Shown: positions 45,367 through 62,141 of the stretch, piece by piece | Layout: every line of letters starts with the position of its first letter | Numbering within the stretch: the first letter of the stretch is position 1 | Sequence record: NC_005066.1 | From: Escherichia phage RB49 | Strand: one strand, 5' to 3' | Length of the DNA: 64,000 nucleotides | Program-made: the position numbers and the translations under genes | The notes under the pieces: generated by a model | What the model was told of the DNA's origin: nothing | Seen by the model: the letters and a program-made list of their open reading frames with translations, nothing else | Database searches by the model: none

Positions 45367-46143
45367 TTACACGCGAGCACCGTAGATCGTGCCTACTTTA
45401 TCCCAGCGTGGAGCATTACCAGTAACGGCTTTACCAGCAGCACCACCGTTATATTCTGTACCGTTCCCCTGAGTATTACATCTTCCTCCAGCAGCACCAA
45501 CGTTACCGCCCGCACCGCCTGTATATGCACTAAGAGACCCCTCACCAACAGATCCTTTACCCGGAGCGGAAATGGAGCCAGCGGTTGCACCAGAACCCAT
45601 ATTAGAGGAAGACCCACCAGCACCGAATGGGCGACCACCACCGCCACCAAATACTAGTCGACCCCTGTTACCGCCACCACCACCGCCACCACCGCCAGCG
45701 ATAGCACCGTTATTTGTAATTCGTAGACGTGTACCGATAGCGTTATTGATTGCGTTTCCACCAGCAGCGCCAGCCGCGTTACTACCACCGTTACCCCCAC
45801 GTCCGTAGACAGTCACACCGGAGTTAATGATCAATGTTACATATTCGTTTGTTAACGAGCTAGGGAAGTCAAGACAAGGAACGCCAGTAGATTGGGAAAC
45901 AATATTACCCGTGATAGTAATTACTACCGGAGTAGATCCTTGTGCTTTCATCCAGTTAATAAGAGTGTCTTTATTGTAAGAGTTACTAGCACCAATGCTA
46001 TAATGAATCTCTTTAGAGCGTCCGACCATTGCCGACATATACGCCGGACGACCTAAGCGAACAGCTTGCATTGCGGCGCTCATCCACCGTTGACCAGTCT
46101 CGGACACAGCCGATGATCCGACCCAACCTGCTTTAATTGCCAT
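45367..46143 (-). CDS. glycine-rich protein (N-terminal globular region + Gly/Ala/Asn-rich low-complexity C-terminus)
   Basis: 258 aa; runs such as GGGGGGGGGNRGRLVFGGGGGRPFGAGG; GGN codon run raises local GC. Confidence 0.5.
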   Translation of the reverse strand: MAIKAGWVGSSAVSETGQRWMSAAMQAVRLGRPAYMSAMVGRSKEIHYSIGASNSYNKDTLINWMKAQGSTPVVITITGNIVSQSTGVPCLDFPSSLTNEYVTLIINSGVTVYGRGGNGGSNAAGAAGGNAINNAIGTRLRITNNGAIAGGGGGGGGGNRGRLVFGGGGGRPFGAGGSSSNMGSGATAGSISAPGKGSVGEGSLSAYTGGAGGNVGAAGGRCNTQGNGTEYNGGAAGKAVTGNAPRWDKVGTIYGARV

Positions 46144-57661: not shown

Positions 57662-57740
57662 TTTGATACTCCTTAGTAGTTCGTGTTTCGTTTCGATGGG
57701 TGTATTATGCTATACACCCTCTTGTGTGTCAACAACTTTT
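57662..57740 (-). promoter_or_regulatory. early promoter cassette (TTGACA-N17-CATAAT)
   Basis: conserved leader CACCCATCGAAACGAAACAC then AAGGAGTATCAAA-ATG. Confidence 0.55.
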
Positions 57741-58424: not shown

Positions 58425-58610
58425 TCAGAAATATGCAATATAGTTTGCCAGTCCTACAGAGTCATCATTCGGCATTGCTTTTACTGCCAGTTCAAACCCT
58501 GCTTCAACTTTCTGTTTAGCGGATTCTTCGTTATAACCCCAGATTACCAGAATAGCTACTACGTTTTCTTTGCTTACTGCTTTCAGTGCTTTAGTGATGC
58601 GACGTGCCAT
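58425..58610 (-). CDS. hypothetical protein
   Basis: 61 aa ORF after cassette RBS. Confidence 0.4.
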   Translation of the reverse strand: MARRITKALKAVSKENVVAILVIWGYNEESAKQKVEAGFELAVKAMPNDDSVGLANYIAYF

Positions 58611-58700
58611 AATTTGATTCTCCGTTTAAGAAAGTGTGTTTCGTTTCGATGGGTGTATTATGCTATAGGCAGGATCTGGTGTCAACAACTTTTTTAAAAA
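58611..58700 (-). promoter_or_regulatory. early promoter cassette (TTGACA-N17-CATAAT)
   Basis: conserved leader CACCCATCGAAACGAAACAC then GGAGAATCAAA-ATG. Confidence 0.55.
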
Positions 58701-58710
58701 AATTTTAGGC

Positions 58711-58740
58711 AATAAAAAAGCCACTCCGAAGAGTGGCTTA
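58711..58740 (-). terminator. rho-independent terminator
   Basis: hairpin AAGCCACTC-TTCG-GAGTGGCTT followed by U-run on minus strand. Confidence 0.6.
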
Positions 58741-58745
58741 TAGGG

Positions 58746-58895
58746 AAGGTAGCGAATCTTCCTTGTCTCCAACCTGCTAGCGGCCTAGCAAGTGAATGCT
58801 TTAGCGTACCGGATCGCCCACATACGCTGTAATAAATGCGGCTAGGTGACGTCCAAATCATTCTAACCGCGCTGTCTTTAGTTCACTATTATTTA
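58746..58895 (-). ncRNA. candidate small structured RNA (not a tRNA)
   Basis: ~150 nt ORF-poor segment between a TATAAATA-type late-promoter match (plus-strand tatttata near 58899-58906) and the terminator; local hairpins GGAAG..CTTCC and TGCTAG..CTAGCA. Confidence 0.2.
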
Positions 58896-59107
58896 TATCG
58901 CTTTCTCTCGCGACGTTTTTGGTCTTCTTCCTTGATAGAGTTAAATGCATCAAAAAGACACATGGCACTAATAATAAACATAACCGTATTTTCTACGATA
59001 TCCCACGGCTTCGCATCAGTACAGATCCCCCAAACGGTAAGAAATGCAAATAAGGCAGAAGAGATCACAAGCATGATACTTGCTAAGATATAAAAAGTCA
59101 TTTTCAT
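58889..59107 (-). CDS. small membrane protein
   Basis: 72 aa, two hydrophobic helices. Confidence 0.4.
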   Translation of the reverse strand: MKMTFYILASIMLVISSALFAFLTVWGICTDAKPWDIVENTVMFIISAMCLFDAFNSIKEEDQKRRERKRYK

Positions 59108-59610: not shown

Positions 59611-59853
59611 TCATAGCGTACAAAGCCATTTAAAAGCACCACATAAAGCGAGCAGAATACTAGGTATAAACGAGACCAAAACAAGTTTGCAAAAATCATC
59701 TAAGGTAACACCGGAATAGCTACCTACTGTAACAACACCGATCATCAGACACAGAAAGAAAACAAATGCAATCATAAACAAAGTATTGCTAAACAGTTTA
59801 GTGATCATTAGACACCCCACGACGATCAATTTCAAAAACTTTTTTATCATCAA
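59611..59853 (-). CDS. small membrane protein
   Basis: 80 aa, hydrophobic. Confidence 0.4.
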   Translation of the reverse strand: MMIKKFLKLIVVGCLMITKLFSNTLFMIAFVFFLCLMIGVVTVGSYSGVTLDDFCKLVLVSFIPSILLALCGAFKWLCTL

Positions 59854-60001
59854 CGAAGCATGTCACAACTGCCTCGTTGACTTCCGCAAATTGTTGTGTC
59901 ACCCACTTAAGGTCAGAGCGAAACAATGTTCTATTAATAACAAATGTTTTACCGCTCTTATCCTTACCCATAAATTTTGCTTTACCCATATCCAATTCCA
60001 T
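59798..60001 (-). CDS. hypothetical protein
   Basis: 67 aa ORF; start uncertain. Confidence 0.35.
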   Translation of the reverse strand: MELDMGKAKFMGKDKSGKTFVINRTLFRSDLKWVTQQFAEVNEAVVTCFVDDKKVFEIDRRGVSNDH

Positions 60002-60724: not shown

Positions 60725-61195
60725 TTACAGTTTGGTCGTCCACTCCAGGTCTAGATCTTCGACATACTCATGAGATCGGACAATCTCTAAATCGAACTCT
60801 AGGTCAGTGCCAAATTTACGCGCACCAACATCATAAGAAAGCGTGATATGCGGTACATATTCAGGATAATCCCACGTCGCGCCTAAAGCAGTTCCGATAT
60901 CGTGTCTGAATTGCATGTAGTCGCTTTCAAATGCCAACACAAGCGCATTAGTACCGGATTGAGTTTCAAACACTTTCAGATGGCATAGAGAGCCTAAAAA
61001 CTTTTCACCCTCTTCTGGGATAAACGGAACATAGACACGAGAATATAAGATAGTGCTATGCAGTTTATCACGAGGAACGGCATTAGGCAGATCGTAGAAC
61101 TCCTGCAATTTTTCAATGCGGTCTAGTGTATCCTCAGTGAATTTAACCGCCGCATATGTACCTTTAACGGATTCTCGAAACGGGGTCATAATCAA
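60725..61195 (-). CDS. 57B: 2H phosphoesterase (LigT-like), candidate Acb1-type cyclic-nucleotide phosphodiesterase
   Basis: 156 aa; two H-x-[ST]-x motifs (HSTI, HITL) about 85 residues apart; ATGA-coupled downstream of 57A, the T4 57B position. Confidence 0.55.
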   Translation of the reverse strand: MIMTPFRESVKGTYAAVKFTEDTLDRIEKLQEFYDLPNAVPRDKLHSTILYSRVYVPFIPEEGEKFLGSLCHLKVFETQSGTNALVLAFESDYMQFRHDIGTALGATWDYPEYVPHITLSYDVGARKFGTDLEFDLEIVRSHEYVEDLDLEWTTKL

Positions 61196-61458
61196 GCCTC
61201 CGTGATCAGTTCTACTTCCTCTTTAGCGTCTTCCGCTGCTTCGTCTTTAGGGAGAAGTGCTTTCACTTCTTCGACAATAGCATCAAGGGAAACAGTGCCG
61301 TTTTCGTCTGGCTGAATACCCAGAATGCGTACAAGTTCCATCAATACACGCTCACGATCTTTCAGTTGGCCTTCTAAGAATGCGGCCTTTTCTTGAGTGT
61401 CAAACAGACGTACTTTCAGGACATTAATCATTTGTTCATGCTGATTGGACATATTCAC
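61192..61458 (-). CDS. 57A: tail-fibre assembly chaperone 57A-like coiled-coil protein
   Basis: 88 aa acidic coiled-coil protein immediately downstream of gene 1. Confidence 0.5.
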   Translation of the reverse strand: MNMSNQHEQMINVLKVRLFDTQEKAAFLEGQLKDRERVLMELVRILGIQPDENGTVSLDAIVEEVKALLPKDEAAEDAKEEVELITEA

Positions 61459-61484: not shown

Positions 61485-62141
61485 TTAAATGTTCGCGAGA
61501 ATCGCGCTTTCAAATTCTTCTAATGTGCCATTATTTATGATAACTGTTTCACCGTCAATAGGCAAAATTCCTTTTTCGGTGGAGTGGGTCGATACAATAC
61601 CAGTATCGCGCTGAATATGCAACACCTTAGCACCCATAGCACGCATGAGAGCAATTTCAATAGGCTGACGCACATCAACCACTACAAAATACCCTTCTTC
61701 ATTTTTGCGCTTCATAAACTCATCCACAAAGAGATTACACCAATAAAGCGGATTGATCAAGTTAACCATTATATCAGTACCGAGAGTGGTTAACATGAGA
61801 CGAATAGACCAGACGTTATTATGTTTTTCGCCAATCTCATTAACGACCTTGTAAATCTCAGCCAGACGATCACAAGTAAAGGAACTACCGCCATACTTCG
61901 AATCTAGCATAAGCAGACACTGAATAAACCACTTATGCGCGGTATAGGTATCAATACCTAGATCGGCTTCTCTGTCACGCCCTAACCCGTCAAAGTCAAG
62001 ATAAGTCAGACCTAAGTCTGGTTGACATTCGCATAAGATTTCTTTGATCGGTGCTGCCAGTTGATAACTATGTCCATCAATGATTAACGCGGCAGTGTCT
62101 TTTCCTACTCGCTTTTTACCACAAAGTGCAATCAATTTCAT
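61485..62141 (-). CDS. 1: deoxynucleoside monophosphate kinase
   Basis: 218 aa; Walker A CGKKRVGKDT; LMLTTLGTDIMVN and MRAMGAKVLHIQR collinear with T4 gp1. Confidence 0.85.
   Translation of the reverse strand: MKLIALCGKKRVGKDTAALIIDGHSYQLAAPIKEILCECQPDLGLTYLDFDGLGRDREADLGIDTYTAHKWFIQCLLMLDSKYGGSSFTCDRLAEIYKVVNEIGEKHNNVWSIRLMLTTLGTDIMVNLINPLYWCNLFVDEFMKRKNEEGYFVVVDVRQPIEIALMRAMGAKVLHIQRDTGIVSTHSTEKGILPIDGETVIINNGTLEEFESAILANI

Follow-up and report, generated by a model that had tools for sequence, protein, structure and literature searches.

What occupies the wide gap between two minus-strand genes in the early region of Escherichia phage RB49? In the 64,000-nucleotide (nt) stretch of this genome analyzed here (NC_005066.1; hereafter the window), 279 nt separate the homologues of the Phi1 open reading frames ORF118 and ORF117, whereas nearby gaps that bear promoters measure 66-111 nt, and the surplus of ~170 nt over such ordinary gaps is the candidate RNA with which we are concerned. 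Working from the letters of the window, a first-pass annotation had proposed a small RNA here, placed between a late-promoter-like motif and a terminator. We put the probability at roughly 0.55, somewhat better than even, that the minus strand here encodes a structured, single-copy non-coding RNA of ~171 nt, peculiar to Krischvirus, which is made as an early 3' untranslated region (3' UTR) and probably also as a late transcript. Thus, the earlier proposal holds in so far as the element is conserved, structured, non-coding and equipped with a credible promoter, although a separate late RNA is not distinguishable from a functional 3' UTR. No described RNA family matches it, and a new phage non-coding RNA restricted to one genus is the best-supported reading of the sequence.

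On the minus strand, the predicted RNA would start at G58884, the inferred +1, and finish with a U-run (58714-58884); early transcripts from the upstream operon carry this same 58714-58884 sequence as their 3' UTR. It would begin with an A-rich, single-stranded 5' leader, GAACUAAAGACAGC (58871-58884), in which one position varies (G>A or deletion). Hairpin 1 (58838-58870) consists of an 8-bp stem, an internal loop, a 4-bp stem and the loop UUGGAC, and carries a single loop change across the 15 distinct aligned variants, while hairpin 2 (58803-58828) combines a conserved 7-bp basal stem with a hypervariable apex of substitutions and 1-2-nt indels. In hairpin 3 (58768-58796) an invariant 8-bp core stem, CUUGCUAG/CUAGCAGG, closes the loop GCCG and is continued by a 4-bp extension. 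Between hairpins 3 and 4, and reaching into their flanks, lies the purine-rich stretch GGAGACAAGG (58763-58772), which contains GGAG and whose first five bases belong to the 4-bp extension of hairpin 3; it is unchanged in the 15 aligned variants, with one A>G in L037, at an unreliable contig end. Hairpin 4 (58744-58762; GGAAG/CUUCC, 9-nt loop, AUUCGCUAC) is followed by an intrinsic terminator (58714-58739) with a 9-bp stem, AAGCCACUC/GAGUGGCUU (58739-58718, 5 G-C), the loop UUCG and U6 at 58719-58714. The strong downstream terminator and the two stable interior hairpins described in the first-pass annotation are all found in this architecture, GGAAG-N9-CTTCC being hairpin 4 (58744-58762) and TGCTAG-CGGC-CTAGCA the core of hairpin 3 (58775-58790); the T-run of the terminator is present on the minus strand only. 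In phage FL15 (L008) the terminator loop, at the equivalent of 58727-58730, reads CGAA instead of TTCG on an unchanged stem, an inversion that marks a flip of the hairpin loop in the DNA itself. A 9-bp pairing of the 5' end with the loop of hairpin 4, suggested by RNAalifold, was not adopted, as it is invariant, near chance and located mostly upstream of the predicted +1.

The element appears to be confined to one genus. A 901-bp query around the locus matched 57 phage records, every one from Krischvirus, with 95-99% identity, and the window covers the left part of such a genome (T4-type coliphages of the RB49/Phi1/JSE group). With sensitive blastn the element itself was found in 57 of 57 Krischvirus GenBank records at 96.7-100% identity, and blastn of 50,697 phage records, T4 included, gave no copy outside Krischvirus. 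No match was found among 72,556 plasmids, and a search of E. coli genomes, which detects matches of about 24 nt or longer only, gave nothing beyond 24-26-nt matches to the terminator. Divergent copies came from an IMG/VR contig (L004/L021), from ENA and Logan contigs reached via ORF118 homologues (L029-L034) and from a metagenome pattern scan (L036-L038), for a total of ~18 distinct sequence variants. The metagenome scan contributed three further close relatives and no distant ones, and other IMG/VR matches to 17-19-nt seeds proved to be chance matches within unrelated coding sequence.

Comparison of these copies indicates that most of the element changes more slowly than its surroundings. Against L029, a 170-kb contig and the most divergent complete relative, ORF118 is 82.9% identical, the other neighbors 81-95%, the RNA 94.9%, and the RNA without the apex of hairpin 2 97.6%; against L004 the values are 80% for ORF118 and 93% for the core. 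Across the divergent relatives, ORF118 shows 80-83% nucleotide identity and the RNA outside the hairpin 2 apex 97.6-99.4%. Nucleotide diversity (pi) at third codon positions is 0.159 in ORF118, 0.065 in ORF119 and 0.043 in ORF117, compared with 0.013 in the RNA without hairpin 2, where 13 of 150 sites vary versus 77 of 197 flanking third positions (Fisher P = 4e-11). Within the element, pi is 0.0025 in hairpin 1, 0.009 in the hairpin 3 region and 0.004 in hairpin 4, but 0.112 in hairpin 2, and 0.057 in the adjoining early promoter. By these figures, hairpins 1, 3 and 4 together with the loops and linkers are under purifying selection stronger than that on neighboring third codon positions. Hairpin 2, in contrast, varies as fast as synonymous sites, with many apex sequences and indels of 1-2 nt while the rest is nearly invariant, and yet it folds as a hairpin in 14 of 14 distinct variants. 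To judge from the alignment, its sequence is free to change and its shape is not.

Could such a pattern be left by a functionless relic, a piece of acquired sequence or a decaying gene that only looks conserved because its module spread recently? The restriction to one genus would fit, as would the high similarity of the adjacent ORF117 among genomes and the gene-to-gene identities of 81-97% around the locus against L029, which are consistent with mosaicism. However, the RNA without hairpin 2 is less diverse even than the third positions of ORF117 alone, its best-conserved neighbor and part of the same module (P = 0.003). Diversity is also uneven within the element (0.0025-0.009 versus 0.11 in hairpin 2), which is not explained by a sweep, and changes in the stems preserve pairing. 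We regard a relic as very unlikely.

The pairing itself was examined with a 15-variant alignment (A2) and a five-helix model; in the L032 row of A2, six T's beyond the contig end are padding, and no base pair is affected. Standard pairs fill 99.7% of pair cells, compared with 28-46% when the partners are slid. Hairpin 2 contains one G-C>G-U>A-U compensatory series and three more pairs with one-sided, pair-preserving changes, and the sole change in hairpin 4 is an A>G that turns an A-U into a G-U pair, so that the alignment holds four one-sided wobble changes and one double compensatory pair overall. All five informative stem transitions keep pairing in a minus-strand RNA and would be A-C mismatches on the plus strand (binomial P = 0.03). 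Two changes break pairs, namely the window's own U in the apex of hairpin 2, where the register shifts, and a C>A of RB49 in the extension of hairpin 3. Minimum free energies across the 15 variants run from -60 to -66 kcal/mol on the minus strand and are always weaker on the plus strand (-49 to -61), and the minus-strand fold of the element has a z-score of -2.7. Neither of the sequence-based outcomes that, by the first-pass annotation, would refute its proposal (poor conservation, no compensatory base changes) was observed: conservation is well above that of neighboring synonymous sites, and there are structure-preserving and compensatory changes, valid for a minus-strand RNA only.

The 3' boundary of the element coincides with a repeat type known from these phages. 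The terminator stem-loop, an AT-rich spacer and an early promoter (58739-58657) form a typical promoter-early stem-loop (PeSL) cassette, as described for RB49/Phi1, where the stem-loops were shown to terminate efficiently, about like rrnB T1, and the cassettes to mediate recombination (PMC2839356). The promoter, of the sigma-70 type (58657-58685, minus strand; TTGACA, 17 nt, CATAAT), drives ORF117 and lies outside the RNA; further copies of this promoter part are located at 57683, 46432, 42961 and 60627 of the window. The terminator is annotated in the records of GEC-3S, G2248 and Makalu, and the early promoter in GEC-3S and other records. Three independent metagenome assemblies (L004/L021, L030, L031) break ~205-250 nt after ORF118, within the repeated PeSL early promoter, and this shared breakpoint shows PeSL repeats fragmenting assemblies. 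The body of the candidate RNA, on the other hand, is not PeSL sequence, because its 148-nt core has no second copy in 114 kb (the window plus Phi1 64-114 kb). Whereas the promoter part of PeSL cassettes is repeated, the core upstream of the stem-loop is unique and less diverse (pi 0.013 versus 0.057 for the PeSL promoter), and it is G+C-rich, with 49% G+C versus 40% for the whole window, which places it at the 98th percentile and makes it the top value within 55-62 kb.

The vicinity of a recombination-mediating cassette raises the question of whether the conserved object works as DNA, for instance as a hotspot of recombination, a replication origin or a protein-binding site, and the inverted terminator loop of FL15 does show that hairpin events on DNA occur here. 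A signal of this kind would not account for the strand asymmetry of the substitutions, in which each G-U of the minus strand is an A-C of the plus strand. The core is also not repeated in the manner of the PeSLs, and neither iterons nor direct or tandem repeats were found inside it (TRF 0 arrays). On this evidence, a role at the level of DNA is highly improbable.

How would the RNA be made? Its position between an early gene and the terminator of that gene means that the element is transcribed early, at least as a 3' UTR. In addition, an exact T4-type late-promoter consensus, TATAAATA, lies upstream on the minus strand at 58890-58897; the late-promoter-like motif of the first-pass annotation is therefore present, but its plus-strand reading tatttata had been placed 9 nt off, at 58899-58906. 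With the published position of TATAAATA at -13 to -6 (PMC1524935), the predicted +1 falls on G58884 and the RNA measures ~171 nt. The motif (58897-58890) overlaps the end of ORF118, namely TAT, AAA and the stop TAA (context CGA TAT AAA TAA TAG TGA), and the gene ends in three successive in-frame stops, TAA TAG TGA (58891-58883), which span the predicted RNA start.

Exact copies of TATAAATA are scarce in the window, with 2 observed versus 6.0 +/- 2.4 expected in 64 kb. The second (48724-48731, minus strand) lies 34 nt upstream of an antiholin gene (48388-48690, minus strand; 100 aa, Pfam Antiholin, rI-like); it is a late promoter within the early region, just past thymidine kinase, and matches RB49 Pl:48756 of Nolan et al. 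2006. In Phi1 64-114 kb, each of the 9 exact copies occupies a promoter position on the strand of the late genes, so that all 10 other exact sites in the 114 kb occupy late-promoter positions, and one of them, the gp21/gp22 site of Phi1, sits in an identical CGN-TAT-AAA-TAA stop context. Since exact copies are apparently tolerated only as promoters, the genome-wide context makes the site at 58897-58890 a credible predicted late promoter, and the motif is kept in 17 of 18 variants. At another site of this kind, L039:32351 (Phi1 96351, plus strand), TATAAATA comes right after the gene 23 terminator and is followed by an unusually long leader of ~170 nt before ORF161.1, which might hold another structured late RNA.

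From these elements a mechanism can be proposed. Late in infection, gp55-RNA polymerase would start at G58884 from the TATAAATA that overlaps the ORF118 stop, and transcription would halt at the terminator to yield a discrete RNA of ~171 nt. This RNA would be recognized sequence-specifically by a partner, either a host or phage mRNA through pairing of the small RNA (sRNA) type, for which the U-tail is compatible with Hfq/ProQ, or a protein, with hairpin 2 presumably serving as a structural spacer. The single-stranded linkers, which are candidate seeds, are invariant across the aligned variants, and because the loops and linkers are invariant and not the stems alone, the RNA probably works in trans. 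Two specific partners were considered and set aside. GGAGACAAGGA is a poor match to the RegB/S1 consensus GGAGRAYARAA, since it has at position 6 a C, which cleaved sites seldom show, and the idea of a CsrA sponge was dropped, since 4 GGA motifs versus ~2.7 expected (hand count) are no enrichment.

Several observations weigh against this interpretation. Rfam 15 gives no match at the gathering threshold in the window, and hence no known RNA family; the best sub-threshold hits, all of which include the terminator hairpin, are EF3314_EF3315 (23.9 bits, gathering 100), RNAI (22.8, 47) and STnc100 (19.7, 47). A search for pairing targets of the conserved single-stranded parts, on both strands of the window and of Phi1 64-114 kb and with no shuffled null, gave no duplex outlier other than self-antisense. 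The covariation support, real but thin, amounts to one double change; informative substitutions are absent from hairpin 1, from hairpin 3 (whose single change breaks a pair) and from the terminator, so that thermodynamics alone supports those folds. The adjacent ORF117 is unusually conserved too, and recent exchange of a module could account for some of the low diversity. As for the promoter, TATAAATAA is also constrained as Tyr-Lys-stop, and its invariance is weakly above expectation (P about 0.09, as estimated from the variability of third positions). The late promoters predicted for RB49 in print (2006) do not include the site at 58897-58890. Finally, the metagenomic contig L036 (MAVA01000028.1) has lost the 14 nt that carry the promoter (GATATAAATAATAG, equivalent to 58886-58899) and has kept the RNA, although the same deletion removes the ORF118 stop and two other genes contain frameshifts, which makes the quality of this contig doubtful. 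No Krischvirus transcriptome study was found in the literature.

The main rival explanation is that the region acts in cis only, within the 3' UTR of the early operon ending in ORF118, where it would provide exonuclease protection or processing sites; TATAAATA would then merely reflect the Tyr-Lys-stop codons, and a separate RNA would not be produced. Such an element would be expected just where this one is found, between a gene and its terminator; it would explain why L036 retains the RNA without the promoter, and the absence of the site from the published late-promoter list would come as no surprise. Yet a stabilizer requires shape and not sequence, whereas here the loops and linkers are invariant and the sole hairpin that is free to vary keeps only its shape. 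In addition, the location of every other exact TATAAATA in 114 kb at a promoter position argues that non-functional copies are purged, and the other PeSL gaps of the region contain no such element. We therefore consider a purely cis-acting role to be the less probable explanation, albeit one to be taken seriously.

If the late promoter is real, its transcript could also be read differently, as a long structured leader or attenuator through which the promoter drives ORF117 and the genes downstream, the terminator being a point of regulated read-through. Late promoter, structured RNA, terminator and gene do follow each other in the right order, and ORF117 is conserved together with the RNA. However, ORF117 has a strong early promoter of its own immediately after the terminator, late leaders in this genome mostly measure ~25-45 nt, the folds reveal no alternative structure in competition with the terminator stem, and termination at PeSL stem-loops is about as efficient as at rrnB T1. 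An attenuator is thus quite unlikely.

The first-pass annotation had seen no reading frame of note on either strand, which is true in substance. Two mechanical ORFs cross the gap on the minus strand, of 55 amino acids (aa; 58694-58861) and 48 aa (58626-58772), and a third, of 85 aa on the plus strand, is antisense to the upstream gene. Their existence, and the annotation of coding sequences (CDSs) in the gap by some GenBank records, are what a small-protein reading of the 55-aa or the 48-aa frame can draw on. Against it, both frames traverse the terminator and neither start has a clear Shine-Dalgarno sequence; the 55-aa ORF is broken among isolates by the 1-2-nt indels of hairpin 2 and the 48-aa ORF by 1-3-nt indels of the AT spacer. 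No ORF of the gap is conserved in frame or matches Pfam or PHROG, and the annotated CDSs disagree with each other in strand and coordinates. Owing to the frame-breaking indels and the lack of any family match, we rejected a coding function, which we consider extremely unlikely. Inspection of 20 GenBank records, from 17 distinct phages, showed the element to be either unannotated or mis-annotated as small CDSs, the RB49 record having no annotation whatsoever. Nor is a tRNA hidden in this segment: the earlier failure to fold it into a cloverleaf agrees with ARAGORN, which finds no tRNA or tmRNA in the entire window, and RB49 is described as lacking tRNA genes (PMC1524935).

The T4 genome offers an obvious comparison. 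In T4, the corresponding interval downstream of 57B holds a tRNA cluster along with rnaC and rnaD, which measure 139 and 119 nt. The analogy with the T4 e-to-57 interval drawn in the first-pass annotation holds for position, as genes 3, 1, 57A and 57B/Acb1 lie upstream here as well, but it does not extend to likeness in sequence or structure to rnaC/rnaD or to tRNAs. The candidate shares with rnaC/rnaD that they are small non-coding RNAs in the same interval and on the same strand, downstream of genes 3, 1, 57A and 57B, and at ~171 nt versus 139/119 nt they are similar in size. An nhmmer family profile run against T4 68.5-75.5 kb detected no sequence likeness to them, the best hit scoring 5 bits elsewhere in the locus. 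Moreover, rnaC has a tRNA-like T-arm, and rnaC and rnaD lie directly downstream of tRNA-Arg in the tRNA cluster. In contrast, the candidate RNA has no T-arm motif and no tRNA genes around it, and unlike rnaC/rnaD it would have its own late-promoter consensus and its own terminator. According to a 2010 review (PMC3014915), T4 had yielded no functionally characterized trans-acting regulatory RNA, and the roles of rnaC/rnaD are unknown.

In its general features the candidate resembles the trans-acting sRNAs of the Hfq/ProQ class, whether bacterial, prophage-borne or derived from 3' UTRs: size, several hairpins, conserved single-stranded stretches, a terminator with U6 and the absence of coding capacity are all shared, as is a dual origin from a 3' UTR and possibly from a promoter of its own. 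Unlike these sRNAs, the candidate comes from a strictly lytic T4-type phage, would use a gp55 late promoter and is known from sequence alone.

Another conceivable function is that of a decoy. In this scenario the RNA, expressed late, would act against a host defense or an RNA-targeting factor by mimicking an antitoxin RNA or a nuclease substrate; the invariant hairpins would be the recognized surface and the hypervariable apex of hairpin 2 the trace of an arms race. We know of no RNA-based counter-defense of the decoy kind in T4-type coliphages, and we consider this function unlikely. One lead concerns the type III antitoxin ToxI and the pseudo-ToxI mimics of phages; the candidate is likewise a phage-borne structured RNA, in a region with the anti-defense genes Acb1 and Dmd. 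Hairpin 4 is identical to a ToxI repeat (sequence from PMC8610362) at 12 of 13 nt, with a local score of 21 versus 15.0 +/- 2.3 for shuffles (P = 0.03, in a comparison chosen post hoc). However, ToxI is built as a tandem array of ~34-36-nt repeats, of which the candidate has none (TRF 0 arrays), and no Rfam antitoxin family matches the candidate RNA. A ToxI mimic was accordingly set aside as a low-probability lead, with 12/13 nt, no repeats, no Rfam support and a post hoc P of 0.03.

The genes around the element may be summarized briefly. The upstream ORF118 homologue (58889-59107, minus strand) encodes a hydrophobic protein of 72 aa (PHROG 15168), and the downstream ORF117 homologue (58425-58610, minus strand) a protein of 61 aa with Pfam DUF7421, which is highly conserved along with the RNA. 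Further upstream on the same strand follow dmd (59798-60001), an antitoxin against RnlA/LsoA, Acb1/57B (60725-61195; anti-CBASS), gp57 (57A; 61192-61458), the dNMP kinase DNMK of gene 1 (61485-62141) and a protein of tail-tube fold at the position of T4 gene 3. The anti-defense genes dmd and Acb1/57B share the variable region with the candidate RNA. Homologues of ORF117 with 75-80% amino acid identity are found in many T1-like coliphages of ~50 kb (siphophages; damhaus, tunus, pSf-1 and others), and among the DUF7421 records shown there is no T4-like phage outside Krischvirus, a distribution that points to horizontal exchange between unrelated phage families. The idea that the RNA travels together with ORF117/DUF7421 was rejected, since the T1-like siphophages have the gene without the RNA. 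As for base composition, the strongest G+C peak of the window (62%) is a glycine-rich ORF of 258 aa (45367-46143, minus strand) with G runs and motifs of the GGxGG type.

T4-type phages are among the best-studied viruses, and yet regulatory RNAs are essentially uncharted in this group. The element described here would provide a concrete test case, of ~171 nt, for a non-coding RNA driven by gp55, and the contrast between its invariant modules and the free-running hairpin 2 may guide which parts to mutate first. Phi1 and JSE, both RB49-like, are used in therapy cocktails, for which a functional RNA that has gone unrecognized would matter to both genome engineering and annotation.

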